DNA of 62,659 nucleotides from a virus. The DNA lies in the IMG/VR virus record IMGVR_UViG_3300028048_000073, positions 1 through 62,659 of that record; one strand, given 5' to 3'. Position numbers and translations under genes: made by a program. Of the stretch, positions 2,705-11,410 are shown piece by piece; position 1 is the stretch's first letter; each line of letters starts with the position of its first letter. The notes below the pieces were generated by a model that was given only the letters and a program-made list of their open reading frames with translations, made no database searches and was not told the origin of the DNA.

Positions 2705-2875
2705 TTATCCTAAGAAGTATGCCTTGAGTACCTTATAGCATAGGTCAGCATTTTCTTTTCCTGTTTCTGAATCGTCTTCTGCAAATCCATTCATTGCTGC
2801 TTTGATTAATTCCTCAACAGAAATAAAAGATAACAACATCTGCAATGCTACTACATTATTGATGTTATTATACAT
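2705..2875 (-). CDS. 56-aa hypothetical protein (early gene, absent from the ORF track)
   Basis: ATG preceded by AAAGGAGA RBS; a perfect TTGACA-17-TATAAT promoter lies about 40 nt upstream; translation MYNNINNVVALQMLLSFISVEELIKAAMNGFAEDDSETGKENADLCYKVLKAYFLG. Confidence 0.45.
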   Translation of the reverse strand: MYNNINNVVALQMLLSFISVEELIKAAMNGFAEDDSETGKENADLCYKVLKAYFLG

Positions 2876-2910
2876 AATGATTGTTTCTCCTTTCTTTTGT
2901 TGTTATATAT

Positions 2911-2939
2911 ATTATAACATATATTTTATATGTTGTCAA
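2911..2939 (-). promoter_or_regulatory. sigma-70-type promoter, minus strand: TTGACA-17nt-TATAAT
   Basis: RC reads TTGACAacatataaaatatatgtTATAAT. Confidence 0.55.
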
Positions 2940-3585
2940 TGTGTTGTATCTATTGTGTTGTTGTGTGTGTTGTATATATGTATGTGTTGTGTGCGTTATT
3001 GTATGTGTGTTGTTGTATATATGTTTATGTTGTTGTATCTGTTGTTGTTGTGTTTATTATGTTATTATGTTATTGTTGTGTTAATGTTGTTGTGCTCTTT
3101 GTTGTGTGTGTTGTTACTGTTATGTACGTGTGTGTATGTCTATGTAGCTGTGTGTATATGCGTATATATGTATGTATATATGTTATAACAATAGTGTTGT
3201 TATGTATATGTATGTATATTAGTATGTGTGTATGTATTGTAGTGTATATTATTATGTTATTATGTGTATGTATTATTGTGTATGTTATGTTGTTGTATTG
3301 TATGTGTTTATGTATATTATTGTATGTGTTGTTATGTTGTATGTGTTTGTACATAAGTACATTGTGTTGTTATATGTCTGTGTAGATATGTATTGTTGTA
3401 TATCTATGTTGTTGTTGTATTATTTTATATTGTATTATTGTGTATATTGTTGTGTATGTTATTGTGTTATGTTTATTATATTGCTGTGTATGTTATGTGT
3501 TAGTGTTGTTGTGCTTGTCTCTTTATGTGTTGGTGTAGTTATAGTGTTATGTTGTTGTGTGCGTGGATAAGTGTGCGTGAGTAGC
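2925..3585. repeat. about 660-bp low-complexity GT-rich, C-depleted tract of degenerate TGT/TAT/GTT triplets with short (TG)n runs
   Basis: The plus strand is almost only G, T and A over 650 nt. There is no regular repeat unit and no credible ORF. Confidence 0.8.
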
Positions 3586-4252
3586 TGCTATGTGGCATCA
3601 TCTAAGCAAGTACTGCCGCATTTTATTCACCGTATTTTTATACCTCTTATTATCTCTTTCTATTGGTCTTAGCAATAGAACAATACAATATAATCTTATG
3701 TATTTATGCGCGCGTTCGGTTTGTATATCCTCGCACAAGTTTGGTTCATTACGAAACGGCTGCCCGCGCCTCAATATATACTCCATTATTTTCTCACTAT
3801 TGTTCTTCCACAAATGTTGTAATAAATATCCTTCATTAATAATATCATTCAAAATTTTTAAATAGTTTTATCAATACTCTTTAAATGTTTTTATACCTTT
3901 AAATAATTTATTAAGATAATTGTTTATAAAGCAAAATTTATTTAATTGTTTTTATTTATTTATGGCAGCGGCAAATATAAAAAGAAAATAAAACATAATG
4001 CGCTTGCTTTTGTGGCAGGTGTATTAAATAAACGGCTTACTTTTGTGGGAGGGTCCTAGGTGAACGGAGCCAAGAAAAAAAGTCTTCAGCTTCGTGACGT
4101 ACCGGGGGTATATTTTGGGATAATAAATTTGATTTTCTAAAAAATTTAATTTACCACGCACTTTCCGACAGCAAAAGTTTTTTCGTTTTAAAAAAGCGAA
4201 GCATATTTTCTAAACACCAATAACGAAAAATTTTTAAATCAATTAAATATTC

Positions 4253-4307: not shown

Positions 4308-5384
4308 TTGGACAATTCAAAACAACACATTCCCCTTGATTACTCAATCACAGACCCAAAAGAAAGAAAGAAACTTGTTGATAAAATCCTTGCAGAGAAT
4401 CCAAATCCCTCCAAGCAATATTTAGAAATTTTATCAGATTACATCGTTTTAGCAATGACCAAAGAAGAAAAAAAAGAAAAGAAAATCCTTACAGATAATC
4501 GCATGGTAACTGTCAACAAGCGCGAAACCTCTTATCAAGGGCTTGTATCTAAACTTGAAAATGGCGAAGATGGCTTATACCATATGATGGGCGGCAATGA
4601 TAAAAACATCATTTTAACCCCCAAAATAAGTATTACTAAAAAAGACCTTGATGAAATACCTGCACTTCAACAAATGCGCAAAGATATCGAATATTGGAAA
4701 GAAAAAGAAAAAACTGCGGTGGGCAAAGACCGTTATATCATTAAAAAAACAATCATTGAACTTTCACAAGACCAATATATCGTCAAAAGTGCTTTTCGTA
4801 ATCCCATTATAACTCAAAACACCGTAAAAACAGAACACAAAATTGATTTTGGTGAAAACTATTATATCGACGCGGAAGGCAATATTCAAAGTGATGGTCT
4901 TGTCACCCTTCTCAATCCTCAGCACGTCTCTGCCATTCTCTGCAATTATAATTTATTCAGATGCGGCGACTCAGGTAAAGACCTCACAGACCTAGTAGAT
5001 GAGCTTGACAAACTTATTGATCAAACACTTAAAGACGACTATCCTTTCTATTATGACCTTGTTTGGCTTAAAATAGATGGAATAAAAAATGCGGATATCC
5101 ACAAACAACTTAATGACAAACACGGCTACACCTACTCCGTCGAATATCTTTCAGCTTTGTGGCGCAAAAAAATCCCCAAACTTCTATCAGAGCAAGCGCA
5201 AGAAAATGCGCTTATCTGGTATTACACCGAAGTAGAACGCGGCAAGTGGAAACGTTGCTCTCGATGTGGCGAAGTCAAATTAGCGCACAGCCGTTTTTTC
5301 TCTCGAAATAAAACTGCATCCGATGGCTGGTATAGTGTATGCAAGTGCTGCCGCAACAAGAAAAAAGGAGCTGGGCAGAAATGA
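4308..5384 (+). CDS. hypothetical protein with C-terminal Cys4 zinc-ribbon; possible small terminase or DNA-binding packaging protein
   Basis: 358-aa ORF with TTG start after GGAAAGGAGGG RBS; CSRCG...CKCC motif at the C-terminus; first gene of the rightward block before terL. Confidence 0.5.
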   Translation: MDNSKQHIPLDYSITDPKERKKLVDKILAENPNPSKQYLEILSDYIVLAMTKEEKKEKKILTDNRMVTVNKRETSYQGLVSKLENGEDGLYHMMGGNDKNIILTPKISITKKDLDEIPALQQMRKDIEYWKEKEKTAVGKDRYIIKKTIIELSQDQYIVKSAFRNPIITQNTVKTEHKIDFGENYYIDAEGNIQSDGLVTLLNPQHVSAILCNYNLFRCGDSGKDLTDLVDELDKLIDQTLKDDYPFYYDLVWLKIDGIKNADIHKQLNDKHGYTYSVEYLSALWRKKIPKLLSEQAQENALIWYYTEVERGKWKRCSRCGEVKLAHSRFFSRNKTASDGWYSVCKCCRNKKKGAGQK

Positions 5385-5431
5385 TTAATCTTATTGCTAT
5401 TGCCTCTATTTAACACAAAGGAGATGATATA

Positions 5432-6691
5432 ATGCCGTTTTGTCAAAAATGTCAAAAGACACTTAAAGATGTGGCTTTTTATACATATAAAGATGGAACA
5501 AAAACAGAATTATGTAAGAAATGTTTAACAATGCACGTAGACCCCTATAAACCTGAAACTTTCCTTTGGATACTTGAAAAAATGGATATTCCGTGGCTTC
5601 CTTGGGAATGGAATCCTCTTGTGGCGAGGGCAGCCGCTAAAGGAAGCCAGTATGTTAGTGGTACCGCCATTATGGGCAAATACCTTGGAAAGATGCGGCT
5701 AGGTCAATGGGGAAAATTAGGTTGGGCGGATACAGAAAAAGAACAGGCGAAAAGAGACGCCTTAAGAGCTGAATACACTATTGTTCATGGCGAAGCACCA
5801 AAAGATAAGGAAACTCTTCATCAGCAATATATTGATGGAGAAATAACAGAAGCTCAATATAAGACTATGCTGCCAGAAGAATTAGTCGTGCCGCCACCAC
5901 CTGAAGCACCCCCAGAGCCAGTAGACCCTTATAAAGAAAACGATTTTCTGGATGAAGTGGAAAGTCCTGCGGCTCAACTATCTCAAGAAGATAAAATTTA
6001 TTTAGCCATGAAGTGGGGCAGAAATTATCATGCTGAACAGTGGATAAAGCTTGACCGTATGTATGAAGAGATGTCTAATTCTTTTGATATATCAGATGCG
6101 GATTCTAAGATAAATTTGCGGCAGCTCTGTAAGACATGGCTGAAAGCTGAAGAAGCTATTGATATGGGTGATATTGATAGTTATCAAAAGCTCAATAGAG
6201 TTGCGGAAAGCCAACGTAAAAGTGGTAATTTTACTGCCGCACAAAATAAAAAAGAAAAAGATGACTTAGTAGATTGTGTTGGAAATCTTGTTGCCTATTG
6301 CGAGCGGGAAGGCGGAAAGATTCCTCGTTTCGATATATCTGCGCCAAGAGATCTCGTTGATAAAGAAATTCAAGACCAAAAAGATTATATTCATGCGCTC
6401 ATATATGAAGATAAGGCATTGGCACAGCAGATAGAAACTTATCTAAAGAAACGTGAACTATTGGATGAAAAAGTGCGGAAGAAGCTGCTCGAGCGCGCGG
6501 GAATCAAAGAAGACGACGAACTTAACGATGATGACTTTATGGATAGATTCAATGAAATTTCTCGTGAAGTTGAGCATGACTTAGCCGTTCAATCTGGTTC
6601 TATTGATAATGAAGACAATGATGAAAAATCAGTAGAGGGAGATGATGAATATGGCTTTGTCGGATTTGACAGCCCTCTACGACAAGTATGA
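5432..6691 (+). CDS. hypothetical protein with N-terminal zinc-ribbon (CQKC...CKKC) and acidic coiled-coil C-terminus; small terminase candidate
   Basis: 419-aa ORF, AGGAGATG RBS, 3-prime end overlaps the terL start. Confidence 0.5.
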   Translation: MPFCQKCQKTLKDVAFYTYKDGTKTELCKKCLTMHVDPYKPETFLWILEKMDIPWLPWEWNPLVARAAAKGSQYVSGTAIMGKYLGKMRLGQWGKLGWADTEKEQAKRDALRAEYTIVHGEAPKDKETLHQQYIDGEITEAQYKTMLPEELVVPPPPEAPPEPVDPYKENDFLDEVESPAAQLSQEDKIYLAMKWGRNYHAEQWIKLDRMYEEMSNSFDISDADSKINLRQLCKTWLKAEEAIDMGDIDSYQKLNRVAESQRKSGNFTAAQNKKEKDDLVDCVGNLVAYCEREGGKIPRFDISAPRDLVDKEIQDQKDYIHALIYEDKALAQQIETYLKKRELLDEKVRKKLLERAGIKEDDELNDDDFMDRFNEISREVEHDLAVQSGSIDNEDNDEKSVEGDDEYGFVGFDSPLRQV

Positions 6692-6987
6692 GTCCAAAAT
6701 AGGAATGTCGGAAGAACGCTTAAAAGAGCAACTTCCAAATTTAAGAAAATTAATTAGTTTTTTTAGAGAATATCCAGATTTATTTGTAGACTTCATGAAA
6801 GGCGAGAAGAGCACTTTTAAGTTCTATTATTATCAAAGAGTATTTATAAGAATGGTGGCGCGGCATCGATACGTTTATGCGACGTATCCGAGGGCCTTCA
6901 GCAAAAGCTTCTTGTCGGTATTAGTGCTAATGTTGAGGGCAGTTCTTTTTCCTGGTTCTCATTTGTTTGTAACTACGGGCGGTAAAT
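6642..6987 (+). CDS. terL: large terminase subunit, exon 1 (T4 gp17-like ATPase N-terminus including Walker-A-like PRAFSKS)
   Basis: FYYYQRVFIRM...YPRAFSKSF...FPGSHLFVTTGGK matches gp17 RDYQRDMLKIM...SRQLGKT...KAVGILAHKGS in order and spacing. Confidence 0.7.
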
Positions 6988-7921
6988 AATATAAAAAAGA
7001 AGGAGGAGCACATAGTGAGTGCAAAAAACGTCCTTAGATATTTTGATAAAATTAATACAGAAGAGAAAGCCTATTGGTTGGGTTTTTTATATGCAGATGG
7101 TTCTATTTCTTCCAAAGAAGATAAAATTGAATTAGGTTTAGCAGAGAAAGATTTACATCATATTGAAAAATTTAAACAAAGTTTACAATTACCAAATAAA
7201 ATATGTTATAGGGCTTCAACAAAATCTTATAGAATTAGCTTTAGAAGTCAATCATGTAAGCAAGATCTCATTAATAAAGGTTGTGTTCCTAAAAAATCTT
7301 TAATTCTAAAATTTCCAACAGAAAAACAAGTTCCTTTTTATCTTTTAAAACATTTTATTAGAGGATATTTTGATGGAGATGGATGGTTCACAAATACGTC
7401 TGATTGTTTTCAAGTTGGCATCATTGGAACACAGGACTTTATTCAAGGGTTTTTAAATGCAGTAGAAAACATTAATAAAACAAATAAAATTTTTAGTGTT
7501 CATAGAGAAAACGGTGCAAAAAGATACATATTTGGAGCTTATAATGATGTCTTAAATTTTTTAAATTGGATTTATAAAGATTCAACAATTTATTTAGATA
7601 GAAAATATGAATCTTATTTAGATTTTATTCAAAATGGAAGTAAATATCATAAATAATAATTTTTATATGCCGCCATATTAAAGTAATTTAATATAAGAAA
7701 ACTGCGGAATTAAGCGGGGAAGCTGAGATGCTAATCCGAACCGAAGGCCAATAAATAAAAGGATTGGTCAGGGGCAACGCATAGGGGGTGACGAAAGAAT
7801 AATCTCTCCACGAGGCCGCAGCTCCTTTGAAAGGATGAAAAGATATGCTAGACTTATACGAAAGCAAGTATAAGATTTTATGGATAAAAAGCCATAAAGA
7901 TAATATAATCGAAAGAACAAG
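6988..7921 (+). mobile_element. putative group I intron (about 934 nt) interrupting terL, carrying a LAGLIDADG homing-endonuclease ORF
   Basis: The two terL halves are in-frame homologues of contiguous gp17 sequence. The intervening sequence has stops, its own RBS, and a 3-prime 260 nt with P/Q/R/S-like core elements (attaagcggggaagc, taatccgaacc, ggtcaggggcaa, aagaataatctctcc). The modelled exon 1 ends in T and the modelled intron ends in G. Confidence 0.6.
7015..7656 (+). CDS. LAGLIDADG-family homing endonuclease (two motifs: LGFLYADGSI and IRGYFDGDGWF)
   Basis: 213-aa ORF inside the terL interruption, GTG start after GAAGGAGG RBS. Confidence 0.8.
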   Translation: MSAKNVLRYFDKINTEEKAYWLGFLYADGSISSKEDKIELGLAEKDLHHIEKFKQSLQLPNKICYRASTKSYRISFRSQSCKQDLINKGCVPKKSLILKFPTEKQVPFYLLKHFIRGYFDGDGWFTNTSDCFQVGIIGTQDFIQGFLNAVENINKTNKIFSVHRENGAKRYIFGAYNDVLNFLNWIYKDSTIYLDRKYESYLDFIQNGSKYHK

Positions 7922-9306
7922 CCTCAAGCATTACACTATCTAAAGTCGAAGAGCTCTGTAAGCTATTACCATTCTTACAGAATGAAATCAATTGGGAGCG
8001 TGGGGAAACAAGAAAAACAAAAGATGATGTATGTTACAAATTTAAAAATGGTTCAATTATAGATATTCTTGCAGCAAAAGAAAGTTCAAGAGGGCAAAGA
8101 AGACACTCTGGATTGATGGAGGAGTGCGTTCTTATAGATCAAACTGCTTTGAATGAAATAATTATCCCAACGACGAATGTGAACAGGAACCTTCCGGACG
8201 GATCAACTGACCCTAAGGAGATTGTGAACAAGAGCCAAGTGTATATCACCACAGCAGGCTGGAAAGCCTCGTTCGCGTACACAAAACTTATTGAACTATT
8301 GATTCAATCAATTATTGAACCAGATGAAGTCATGATTGCGGGAGGTACCTATGAAACGCCTGTACTCGAAGGGTTATTAGATGAAAACTTCGTTAATCAG
8401 TTACAGCTACAAGATACTTACAATGAGGATTCCTTTGACCGAGAGTACAGGTCTCGTTGGAGTGGAGATGTGGCGAACGCATTCTTCTCTGCGGAAAAAT
8501 TTGATAGATATAGAGTGCTGAAACAGGCTGAATACGAACATAGCGGCCGCTCCTCAAAAACAGCTTATTATGTATTTGGCGTGGATGTTGGACGCTTTGA
8601 TTGTACTACTGAGGTACTTGTTTTTAAAGTTACGCCTCAACCGCAGGGTCCAGCAATCAAATCGCTTGTTAATATTTATACCCTAAATGCAGAGCACTTT
8701 GAAGACCAAGCAATTAAATTGAAAAAACTATTCTTCAAATATCATGCCAAATGTATTGCTATTGACGCAAATGGCGTTGGTGCAGGTTTAGTTGACTATC
8801 TCGTAAAAGCTCAAACCGACCCAGATACTAATGAATATTTACCGCCTTTTGGCGTTGAGAATGATGATGATGGAAAATATAAGAATTTTAGAACTCCAGA
8901 TATGGAAGAAGATGCATTGTTCTTAATCAAAGCAAATGCGCCAATGAATACAGAAATGTATGCTTATGCAAAAGTACAAATGATTAATGGTAAGATTAAA
9001 CTATTAATTGATGAGTCTCAAGCAAAAGCAACACTTATGTCTACAAAGGCAGGACAAGCGATGAGTATCGCGCAACGCAATGATTATTTAAGACCTTATG
9101 TTTTAACAACTGTTTTAAGAGAACAATTGCTTAATCTCTCGCAAGAAAATGAAGGATTAAATATTATTCTTAAACAAGTATCTAAGACAATCAAAAAAGA
9201 TAAATTCTCTGCTTTTATATATGGACTTTACTATATTAAAAAGTATGAAGATTCGAAACATAAACGAAAGAAAGTTAGACTTTCTGATTATATGTTCTAT
9301 ACATAA
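7922..9306 (+). CDS. terL: large terminase subunit, exon 2 (Walker B / coupling motif / nuclease domain)
   Basis: SSSITLSKVEELCKLLPFLQ...NGSIIDILAAKESSRGQRRHSGLMEECVL aligns with gp17 [21 protein letters not shown]...[30 protein letters not shown]. The frame is open from 7909. Confidence 0.75.
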
Positions 9307-9388
9307 AATTGGACAAAAATAAGCATTTCTCTTTCTCTTGTTTTTAAATATGAGAGAAAGAGAATTTGCATAAAAGAAAGGGTGATGA

Positions 9389-9751
9389 ATGTGAGGGCTT
9401 CAAGAGCAGAAATAAAAATAGAAGATATATTAAAATTTTCAGATTTAAATTTTCAAGAAGAATATAGTTTTCCAGATTTAGTTTCAAATAATGGGCGTCC
9501 TCTTCGATAGCTTTGATTTTGCAGTATTTGATGATGAAGGAAATCTTGATTTCTTAATTGAATATAATGGAATTCAGCATTACGAACCCAAAAGCAAATT
9601 TGGTGGAATTTCTGGCTTGCGCAAACAACAATACAATGATAATATGAAAAGAAGATATTGTGAAAAACACAATATTACTCTTGTAGAAATTCCATATACT
9701 GAGGAAAACCTCATTAGTTATGATTATATAATGAAAGCCGCAGGCTACTAA
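9389..9751 (+). pseudogene. free-standing PD-(D/E)xK-like (DUF559 / Vsr / EDxHD-like) endonuclease gene split by a +1 frameshift at 9508-9512
   Basis: ORF A (9389..9511, ...NNGRPLR-stop) and ORF B (9491..9751, FDFAVFDDEGNLDFLIEYNGIQHY...) together align with the C-terminal domain of the 59937..60968 protein (LFFDIGIYNKDKLLYLIEYDGIQHF...IPLIRIPY). Confidence 0.55.
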
Positions 9752-9763
9752 AGGGGTGAGAAA

Positions 9764-11410
9764 ATGGATGAAAAAATGACATATATTAGTTATGATGCCA
9801 AAAGACAAGAGTATATTCATAGTAAAAGTTTTAATTTCTTTGAGCCAGGAGATAGGCTTGAAAATATGAATAGTCTTACGGCCTATGGTGACATAAAAGT
9901 TGGTCCAAAAATACTTGAAAATGCAGTTGTTGACTTAAACTTTTTTAAAAAGGTTAATCCAAGGCTTGGAGATAAGATGACAGTCATGCGGGCGCTAAAC
10001 GATGGTGACATTGTTACTTTACGAGAGGTGTCTGATTTCTTTTTTAGAACAAGTGGTATTTATGCTCGATTATGTAGATATCTTGCTTTTCTATATAGAT
10101 ACGATTGGATAATTACTCCGCACGTTATTCAAGCGGGCGCAGAGACTGATACTGAAAAAATTGTAGATAAATTTTATAAAGCTCAAAATAGATTTGAAAA
10201 TTTTGGTGTTAAGGCTTTTTGTCAAGACGTTGCTTTAAAAGTTGTTAAGCATGGCTGTTATTATGGCTATATAGTTGAAAATGGTAACACAGCAAGTGTA
10301 CAAGAATTGCCACCAAATTATTGCCGCAGCCGCTATAGAGTTAATGAGAAACCTGCTATTGAATTTAATATGAAATTCTTTGATGACCAATTCAGAACTT
10401 TAGAACTTCGTTTAAAAGTTTTAAAACTTTTCCCCAAAGAATTTAGAAAAGGATATAAACTTTATAAAGAGGGTAAACTAAAAGACGAGATGGGGCAACA
10501 TAATGGTTGGTATTTGCTCGATGTCGGTAATGCAATAAAATTTAATCTTAATGGTGAAGACAGTCCTATAATGGCGTCTGTTATTCCTGCGATAATAGAT
10601 TTAACTGCCGCACAAGAGTTAGATAAACAAAAAGCCGCACAAAAATTATTAAAAATTATTATTCAAAAATTGCCTTTAAACAAAGAAGGCGAAATGATCT
10701 TTGACCCAGATGAAGGTAGAGATATTCATAATAATGCTGTTAGAATGTTAGGTAATGCTATTGGTATCAATGTATTAACTACTTTTGCGGACGTTGAGGT
10801 TGCAGATACAGACTCTACTGCTTCACAAACTGCAACAGATGAATTGGAAAGAAGAGAGCGTACCGTTTATAATGAGGCGGGAGTTTCTCAAATGCAGTTT
10901 AATACAGATGGTAACATAGCTCTTGAGAAAAGTATTCTTAATGATGAAGCTATGATGTATAATTTAGTATTGCAGCTACAGAAATTCTTAAATATTCTAT
11001 TGAAGCCTTATAATAAAGCTCCAAAGAAACTGAATTTAATTGCAGAAATATTGCCAACTACAATTTATAATTATAAAGATATGGCAAAACAATATAAAGA
11101 AATGGCAACAATGGGCTTCTCAAAAATGGCGCCAATGGTTGCTATGGGACAGTCTCAAGCAAATATACTTGCTTCCGCTTACTTCGAGAATCAGGTTCTA
11201 CAGCTGTACAATATCTTAATACCACCACTAAGCACAAACGTTATGAATGGCGATACTCTATTGAATCTTGGACAGGGCGGCGATCCAAAAGGAAAACAAA
11301 CAGAACAGCCGCAGCAACAGCAAGGTGAAGAAAAAACGTCTGGTAGACCTGAAAAGCCAGATGATGAAAAAAGTGAGAAAACGATAATGAATAGAGAAAG
11401 TATGAATTAA
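9764..11410 (+). CDS. portal protein (putative)
   Basis: 548-aa ORF immediately after terL, acidic Q-rich C-terminus, GGGGTGAG RBS. Confidence 0.55.
   Translation: MDEKMTYISYDAKRQEYIHSKSFNFFEPGDRLENMNSLTAYGDIKVGPKILENAVVDLNFFKKVNPRLGDKMTVMRALNDGDIVTLREVSDFFFRTSGIYARLCRYLAFLYRYDWIITPHVIQAGAETDTEKIVDKFYKAQNRFENFGVKAFCQDVALKVVKHGCYYGYIVENGNTASVQELPPNYCRSRYRVNEKPAIEFNMKFFDDQFRTLELRLKVLKLFPKEFRKGYKLYKEGKLKDEMGQHNGWYLLDVGNAIKFNLNGEDSPIMASVIPAIIDLTAAQELDKQKAAQKLLKIIIQKLPLNKEGEMIFDPDEGRDIHNNAVRMLGNAIGINVLTTFADVEVADTDSTASQTATDELERRERTVYNEAGVSQMQFNTDGNIALEKSILNDEAMMYNLVLQLQKFLNILLKPYNKAPKKLNLIAEILPTTIYNYKDMAKQYKEMATMGFSKMAPMVAMGQSQANILASAYFENQVLQLYNILIPPLSTNVMNGDTLLNLGQGGDPKGKQTEQPQQQQGEEKTSGRPEKPDDEKSEKTIMNRESMN

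Follow-up and report, generated by a model that had tools for sequence, protein, structure and literature searches.

A probable mobile group I intron carrying a LAGLIDADG homing endonuclease in the large terminase gene of a Firmicute-type phage

The essential td, nrdB and nrdD genes of phage T4 contain self-splicing group IA introns with looped-out homing endonuclease open reading frames (ORFs) and a sporadic distribution, and the large terminase gene (terL) of Lactobacillus phage LL-H also harbors a group I intron. Two group I introns, term-IVS1 and term-IVS2, have been described in the large terminase of Bacillus cereus prophages (PMC2504315). Such introns are also known in the TerL genes of Bacillus phage SIOphi and other Bastillevirinae, and for terL introns of Bacillus phages, SIOphi among them, splicing has been shown both in vitro and in vivo (PMC11878797). 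Here we describe a related case in the virus record IMGVR_UViG_3300028048_000073, analyzed over its full 62,659 nucleotides (the window), where the large terminase gene is, with a probability of roughly 0.93, split by a mobile group I intron that encodes a LAGLIDADG homing endonuclease. The interpretation is supported by intron-less alleles of the same gene, orthologous introns that share the insertion site, covarying RNA helices, a U-G wobble at the 5′ splice site and a terminal G. An original prediction, made from this DNA alone, had regarded introns in terminase genes as uncommon; the two studies cited above and at least nine interrupted sites among the relatives of this terminase contradict it. 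The terL and intron features given below lie on the plus strand unless otherwise stated.

The interrupted terminase gene and its predicted splice junctions

The ORF listing contains a 115-codon ORF at 6642-6989, a 213-codon ORF at 7015-7656 and an open frame at 7909-9306, and on homology the two outer segments, 6642-6989 and 7909-9306, make up one large terminase when joined. That a single terminase is interrupted here, as originally proposed, is borne out by tblastn with the joined 578-aa protein, which matched 142 phage records and covered at least 80% of the query in a single piece in 123 of them. Uninterrupted homologues include that of the human-gut phage contig MT836163, with 68% identity to the joined protein, and the terL of Enterococcus phage H1, with 44% identity. 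Homologues annotated as terL or YonF are found in Enterococcus, Geobacillus, Bacillus and Lactococcus phages. The joined protein also matches phrog_2, “terminase large subunit” (8e-24, residues 27-479), and phrog_5909 (4e-9), and a match to phrog_15503 runs unbroken across the junction (residues 15-223). No match was found in Pfam-A, and none among PDB chains either at E≤1 with phmmer or at E≤10 with the family profile. The original prediction had also aligned the two halves without a gap to T4 gp17 and given the spacing at its splice junctions as matching that protein, an alignment that could not be reproduced. In hhalign against T4-type gp17 the motifs it named do pair, PRAFSKS with Walker A and GLMEEC with Walker B, but the alignment is gapped and has a probability of only 4.7%. 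The gp17 alignment is thus not significant, and the spacing argument fails with it. These homologies make the region one large-terminase gene, of the YonF/SPbeta-like family, in a large Firmicute-type phage. Megablast of 6400-9400 against 50,697 phage records gave no match, so the phage itself is absent from that collection.

The predicted splice sites are after T6983 and after G7911. They define an exon 1 at 6642..6983, which ends ...ACG GGC GGT (T-G-G) and is matched by tblastn as residues 1-115 at a point where the homologues are continuous, and an exon 2 at 7912..9306, which by frame analysis begins AAA GAA CAA GCC (K-E-Q-A) and is matched as residues 115-578. Between them, separating codons 114 and 115, is a group I intron of 928 nt at 6984..7911, which starts AAAUAA, putting a TAA in frame at 6987-6989, and has ...AAUCG as its 3′ end, the terminal G being G7911. 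The window reads ...ACG GGC GGT AAA TAA around the 5′ site, and the exon-2 frame reads TAA TCG AAA GAA CAA GCC TCA AGC (*SKEQASS). Across the junction, uninterrupted homologues read ...VTTGGKEQAASITIAK..., the family consensus is GGKEQA(A/S)SIT, and the joined protein has ...TTGG/KEQASSITL, with the codons AAA GAA CAA GCC at 7912-7923. The closest relative found, IMGVR_UViG_3300031760_002075 (L134 in our own numbering of loci, which is used from here on), is 98.5% identical over residues 68-200 and reads TTGGKEQASSITLSK continuously; its nucleotide variant of the junction region is ...GGAGGAAAAGAGCAG....

An AAA repeat on both sides of the junction leaves a formal ambiguity of 3 nt when the window is considered alone. 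The introns of L019, L020 and L029 remove this ambiguity: they begin AGA, and GGK is restored only if the cut falls right after GGT. In nine viral contigs an orthologous intron interrupts this same codon, in each case following GGT, and those introns with a definable 3′ end all end in G directly before AAR GAR CAR. Splicing in silico by the same rule yields open, full-length terminases of 582 aa in L020 and 575 aa in L049. The intron of the window thus precisely interrupts a gene that is continuous in the intron-less alleles L001, L003 and L134, and the predicted spliced junction is ...ACGGGCGGT joined to AAAGAACAAGCC, giving the joined window sequence TTTGTAACTACGGGCGGTAAAGAACAAGCCTCAAGC. The junctions first modeled for the window, after T6987 and after G7921 with an insertion of 934 nt, were therefore displaced by 4 nt at the 5′ end and 10 nt at the 3′ end. 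The peptide they implied, GGK/SSSITL, drops the conserved EQA, a register that L134 and the AGA-starting orthologous introns rule out.

Other kinds of intervening element were considered at this point. Inteins and group II introns are known in phage terminase or neighboring genes (annotations; PMC12350094). An intein is ruled out by the stops in the host frame within the insert, a group II intron by the lack of a reverse transcriptase and of any Rfam group II match, and a translational bypass by the length of 928 nt, which is far beyond any known bypass. We consequently give this class of explanation no weight; the P3/P7 pseudoknot described in the next section is of the group I type, as are the U-G wobble and the terminal G.

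The ribozyme and its family

The anatomy expected of a group I intron is present in the sequence, and splicing would be carried out by this RNA. The 5′ strand of P1, GGCGGU at 6978..6983, consists of the last six exon bases and is complementary to an internal guide, GCCGCC at 7669-7674, which follows UUUUUAUAU and lies just before P2. U6983 pairs with G7669, which places at the 5′ splice site the U-G wobble typical of group I introns. The minimum free energy fold of the ORF-deleted intron recovers both P1 and a stem that closes the ORF loop, formed by AUAUAAAAA at 6989-6997 and UUUUUAUAU at 7660-7668. When the P1 pairings were tabulated across orthologues, the pairing of exon and guide was found to be kept, with its U-G wobble, in all nine; in L020, GGUGGU faces GCCACC, a compensatory change from C-G to U-A. 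ORF-less orthologues have only about 18 nt in the P1 loop, which places the endonuclease gene of the window in that loop.

Downstream of the guide, the helices P3-P4-P5-P6-P7-P8-P9 follow in canonical group I order. P2 is a hairpin at 7675..7694 (AUAUUAAA-GUAA-UUUAAUAU), and most family members have a hairpin here. P3 pairs CUGCGG at 7702-7707 with CCGCAG at 7816-7821 and encloses P4, P5, P6, the P7 5′ strand and P7.1. On pair counts from the alignments, P4 pairs 7715-7718 with 7735-7738, P5 pairs 7721-7723 with 7730-7732, P6 pairs 7741-7742 with 7771-7772 and 7746-7752 with 7763-7769, and P7.1 pairs 7785-7788 with 7804-7807. The P7 5′ strand, GCAUA at 7779-7783, is complementary to the 3′ strand UAUGC (7844-7848), which together with J8/7 (UGAAAAGA) occupies 7836..7848 and resembles the Rfam consensus gAAGAUAUAGUC; P7 and P3 form a pseudoknot. 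Between P7 and P3′, where subgroup IA introns have the extra helices P7.1/P7.2, there is one covarying helix, P7.1, with an optional inner hairpin in some members and no second helix evident, and a conserved single-stranded CCACGAG follows P7.1. P8 is a hairpin at 7823..7835 (UCCUU-UGA-AAGGA). P9 pairs 7853-7859 with 7868-7874, and P9.1 pairs 7877-7883 with 7892-7898 around the conserved loop GAUAAAAAGC, after which the tail GAUAAUAUAAUCG leads to the terminal G at 7911. Two ORFs on the minus strand, at 7688-7927 and 7768-7920, overlie the conserved ribozyme and were treated as chance.

The group I core that had been suspected in the 3′ part of the insert belongs to a widespread RNA family. 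A family hidden Markov model (HMM) matches the 3′ ~250 nt of the intron at E 1.6e-49, and the family covariance model scores 204.8 bits over its full length against the window, a value typical of the family, with a single copy in 62.7 kb. With the core as blastn query, similar cores were recovered from within split genes of unrelated phages, among them the gyrA genes of phiR1-37 and BpSp and the terL regions of Listeria LIS04 and Exiguobacterium. Contigs with a pattern drawn from the most conserved stretch numbered at least 120 among viruses and at least 120 among bacteria. The lineage is spread over phages of Firmicutes and Proteobacteria, besides Bacillaceae chromosomes.

Covariation was examined on two alignments. 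In a sequence-only alignment made with MAFFT from 49 members, the paired share of cells is 83%, compared with 68% in shuffled controls; all six pairs of P3 and all four of P7.1 are fully compensatory, and P4, P9 and P9.1 are compensatory as well. A covariance model was then built from this alignment, and 132 distinct sequences, mostly bacterial and outside the training set, were aligned to it. In the resulting alignment 98.3% of cells are paired (34-48% in slid controls) and 35 of 37 pairs show double changes. These include 6/6 pairs of P3 and 4/4 of P7.1, with 97-100% of cells paired, and all seven pairs in each of P9 and P9.1, with 98-99% paired. P3, P4, P5, P6, P7.1, P9 and P9.1 thus covary strongly. 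For P8, a hairpin of at least 4 bp is found in 47 of 47 members despite unrelated sequence and varied length (mean z −3.9).

Several observations weigh against a group I intron in the window and must be set beside this evidence. The Rfam group I model RF00028 (Intron_gpI), the check originally proposed for this locus, gives no match in the window, either at the gathering score (50 bits) or, with E≤10, on 6800-8300 and on the core alone (7655-7925). For the ORF-less 306-nt intron of L049 taken alone, RF00028 is the best match, at 16.9 bits and E 0.046, far below the gathering score. The model-based alignment is biased towards the structure used to build it, and here the sequence-only alignment agrees with it. 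P7 is complementary and near-invariant in the family, with one GCGUA/UACGC double change and almost no covariation signal. Part of this invariance comes from collection, the search pattern having contained GCAUAG, which is the P7 5′ strand; for this reason P7 is supported by complementarity and not by covariation. In addition, the window has only a weak P10 with exon 2, and no experimental evidence of splicing was found for this sequence or for this ribozyme lineage.

The silence of Rfam is not read as absence of an intron, because controls on homologous genes show that RF00028 misses this lineage. It scores 52-88 bits on other introns of homologous terminase genes (Enterococcus phage EF1; L029 1358-1627) and misses the introns of L016, L029 and L049 at the same site as that of the window (site 115), despite their having no ORF. 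Its alignment of the L049 intron also places P3, P4, P6, the insertion after P7, P3′ and P8 exactly as assigned by hand. That Rfam and GISSD models miss phage group I variants has been reported previously (PMC11878797). A search with no group I hit, together with evidence that the two halves are separate genes, had been named in advance as grounds for abandoning an intron; the search was indeed negative, and the halves behave as one gene.

The evidence for a single gene bears on the proposal that the terminase consists of two separate polypeptides, a free-standing endonuclease gene having split terL and the halves assembling after translation without RNA splicing. The exon-2 frame contains no start codon before the TTG at 8113. 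A second protein initiated there would be missing some 66 conserved residues, its start falling within the Walker-B segment GLMEEC, and independent translation of exon 2 is for that reason unlikely. Such a split would account for the stop codon that exon 1 meets three bases into the insert, for the lack of an Rfam group I intron in the window, for the database annotation of terminase pieces as separate proteins in relatives and for the existence of separate PHROGs families for the N- and C-terminal parts. It has no need, however, of the stretch of 250 nt that separates the endonuclease ORF from exon 2 and is a conserved, covarying RNA with group I topology, and a free-standing endonuclease gene does not explain the ORF-less versions of 306-317 nt at the same site. 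We regard separate polypeptides as extremely improbable.

A second alternative is that the intron is degenerate and splices poorly, either because terL is a pseudogene in a defective phage or because a host or phage factor is needed. The window carries the 3′ tail GAUAAU where about 90% of members have GAUAAC, its P10 is weak as noted above, and certain phage introns are spliced in vivo and not in vitro (PMC11878797). Against this, the window agrees with 69 of the 71 family columns conserved at ≥95%, both exceptions being in an optional loop, and its covariance-model score is that of an ordinary member. Both exons and the endonuclease ORF are intact, and the genes of the structural module around them are long and open. 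A degenerate intron is therefore very unlikely.

For a functional group I intron, the following course of events is proposed, with the chemistry and the homing steps taken from established group I and homing biology; catalysis, the timing of splicing and the activity and target of the endonuclease are to be understood as conditional on that analogy. terL would be transcribed as one pre-mRNA, in which the intron RNA folds into the group I core and the exon sequence GGCGGU pairs with the guide GCCGCC to form P1 with its U-G wobble. An external guanosine would attack after U6983, and the freed exon 1 would then attack after G7911. Ligation would join ...ACGGGCGGU to AAAGAACAAGCC and give the 578-aa terminase reading ...VTTGGKEQASSITL.... 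Unspliced RNA would be translated only into a 115-aa fragment, stopping at the TAA at 6987-6989, and packaging would thus depend on splicing. In co-infection, the endonuclease could cut intron-less terminase alleles, whose repair would copy the intron in, as in the case of characterized homing endonucleases.

Members of the family also occur in other genes. In Bacillaceae chromosomal contigs (within L136-L255) the family ribozyme is found in a ribonucleotide reductase gene, with the 3′ exon EQPLAPYSVCNLAAVNL in dozens of species, and in recA, with the 3′ exon NPETTPGGRALKFY / NPETTPGGRALKFYSSVR.... Other bacterial contigs contain it in dUTPase, in gyrA (KYHPHGD), in terL at the same KEQA site and in tail genes. 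In Yersinia phage phiR1-37 (L005, 1274-5062), gyrase A is annotated as two genes, g327 and g329, separated by an “endonuclease”, g328. The core of the family comes after g328, which makes this an unannotated intron of the same lineage, and the gyrA region of Bacillus phage BpSp (L007) is similar. In viral loci such as L009, L027, L062, L092, L050 and L105, the HMM match is split at model position ~125-135 (L7.1) or ~160 (L8), with several hundred bases separating the halves. Because endonuclease ORFs occupy different loops across members, separate invasions are implied.

The endonuclease, the insertion site and the neighboring genes

As stated in the original prediction, the insert encodes an intact LAGLIDADG protein with two motifs and its own ribosome-binding site. 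The homing endonuclease gene, at 7015..7656, encodes a single chain of 213 aa and is preceded by a Shine-Dalgarno sequence read from the DNA, AAGGAGG at 7000..7006, 8 nt before the GTG at 7015; the same AGGAGGAGCAC...ATGAGTGCAAAA arrangement is seen in the orthologues L020 and L075. The motifs are LGFLYADGS at residues ~22-30 and IRGYFDGDG at ~115-123. The protein matches Pfam LAGLIDADG_3 (1.3e-8, 35.4 bits against a cut-off of 22.5) and phrog_4645 (5e-51), and by sequence its nearest solved structure is PDB 2DCH (E 8e-4). Six full-length orthologues, each within the same intron, share 71-83% identity across all 213 codons, with no stops or indels, and their dN/dS is 0.12-0.23 at a dS of 0.75-1.3. 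By these codon comparisons the endonuclease gene is under purifying selection, and the enzyme is presumably active.

The insertion site is occupied in some relatives and empty in others. It is empty in L001, L003 and L134, holds ORF-less introns of 306-317 nt in L016, L029 and L049, and holds ORF-bearing introns in L019, L020, L031, L054 and L075/L126. As read from these contigs, such patchy occupancy is the pattern that a homing element would produce.

The site in the window is one of many at which homologous terminases are broken. At least nine positions were found, at residues ~70, 85/87, 115, 178/181, 200, 227-232, 294, 340-349 and 521/522, with up to four insertions in one terminase gene (broken-gene contigs include L075/L126, L024/L104, L039, L019, L031 and L132). 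Going by these broken genes, introns are common rather than rare in this terminase family, and the family is an intron hot spot. L134, in addition to being free of the site-115 intron, has three other insertions where the window is continuous, at 2781-4001 (~1220 nt, near residue 70), 4399-4647 (248 nt, near residue 200) and 4742-5874 (~1132 nt, near residues 227-230); the second of these holds the canonical GAUAUAGUC element. In Enterococcus phage EF1 (L002, MF001358; 2052-3044) RF00028 matches the terL homologue three times, at 87.9, 52.1 and 39.4 bits, the third being below the 50-bit gathering score, and the terL exons are annotated as separate “hypothetical proteins”. Two PHROGs of “unknown function” that match this terminase, phrog_15503 (N-terminal) and phrog_24618 (C-terminal), are probably families built from terminase fragments.

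Upstream, terL overlaps the 3′ end of an ORF at 5432-6691 by ~40-50 nt. Its start is ambiguous, since ATG codons are present at 6642, 6645 and 6651 behind a Shine-Dalgarno-like AGAGGGAG at 6634-6641; the ATG at 6651 is the best spaced from it (9 nt) and may be the true start rather than 6642. A promoter and terminator scan of 6300-9800 found no more sites than in shuffled sequence. The next gene downstream of terL is that for the portal (ORF 9764-11410; phrog_2739, “portal protein”, 3e-76). The gap between them contains two overlapping ORFs in different frames, 9382-9510 (42 aa) and 9491-9751 (86 aa). For the second, matches to “HNH / homing / intron-encoded” nuclease PHROGs (phrog_559, 7e-21; phrog_9084, 1e-20) are confined to the C-terminal parts of those families, and there is a weak match to DUF2726. 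The region 9382-9751 looks like the remnant of a free-standing homing endonuclease that has been truncated or frameshifted. phrog_559 is the VSR-type nuclease present in the terL introns of Bastillevirinae (PMC11878797).

Comparison with known introns

For annotation, the findings mean that terL in the window should be given as a join of 6642..6983 and 7912..9306, and the endonuclease should be named as intron-encoded. A standard Rfam screen returns a false negative for this lineage, and relatives of this terminase have been deposited as several “hypothetical proteins”. Well over a hundred additional copies are found with the family covariance model, including some in Bacillaceae recA and ribonucleotide reductase genes. 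With respect to biology, the window would provide one more case in which an essential late gene needs RNA splicing for its expression, and current understanding is unchanged.

The intron of the window is similar to the known terL introns in its kind of host gene, in its insertion into the highly conserved ATPase segment and in the stop that the host frame meets within the first intron codons. A homing endonuclease ORF is often present in those introns as well, and some relatives have more than one intron in the gene. The differences lie in the host protein, a YonF/SPbeta-like terminase without a Pfam match, in the insertion site, and in the ribozyme lineage, which RF00028 misses. Whereas the terL introns of Bastillevirinae encode VSR-type “HNH” proteins, the endonuclease in this case is of the LAGLIDADG type.

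A closer comparison is offered by the RF00028-type (IA2-like) introns of EF1, which has three, and of L029 (1358-1627). They reside in homologous terL genes and share with the present family the order of helices, an extra element between P7 and P3′ and the J8/7 consensus AAGAUAU. They score 52-88 bits against RF00028, in contrast to 0-17 bits for the present family, and their P7 is GACUA/UAGUC rather than GCAUA/UAUGC. The present lineage is further marked by a minimal P5 of 3-4 bp, a single P7.1 followed by the CCACGAG linker, and the conserved L9.1 loop GAUAAAAAGC. It is possible, but on balance doubtful, that the ribozyme represents a distinct lineage of group IA-like introns without any public model. 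If it is true that no existing subgroup model covers the lineage, many split phage and bacterial genes would be standing in databases as separate fragments.

The chromosomal recA and ribonucleotide reductase introns of Bacillus occupy the same host genes as the Bacillaceae members of the present family. The published recA and nrdE introns of Bacillus splice in vivo and are IA1/IA3-like. Phage 0305phi8-36, which has been linked in print to the B. cereus recA/nrdE-IVS3 introns, was not among the matches when a recA member served as blastn query, and homology between the family and the published B. cereus-group recA/nrdE introns should be taken as a lead, not as a result.

Like I-Tsp061I (PDB 2DCH), an archaeal intron-encoded enzyme, the endonuclease has two LAGLIDADG motifs in one chain, and the two proteins are of comparable length; their resemblance is very remote, and they differ in host and target. 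As in the td, nrdB and nrdD introns of T4, the ORF is looped out of the ribozyme and the intron is sporadic among relatives. The T4 ORFs are of the GIY-YIG or HNH type and reside in other peripheral loops, whereas the LAGLIDADG gene described here lies within the P1 loop, with the 5′ splice site on one side of it and the guide on the other. Terminase introns are already known and the present case is an ordinary one among them, yet the lineage to which its ribozyme belongs is abundant and invisible to the standard Rfam model.

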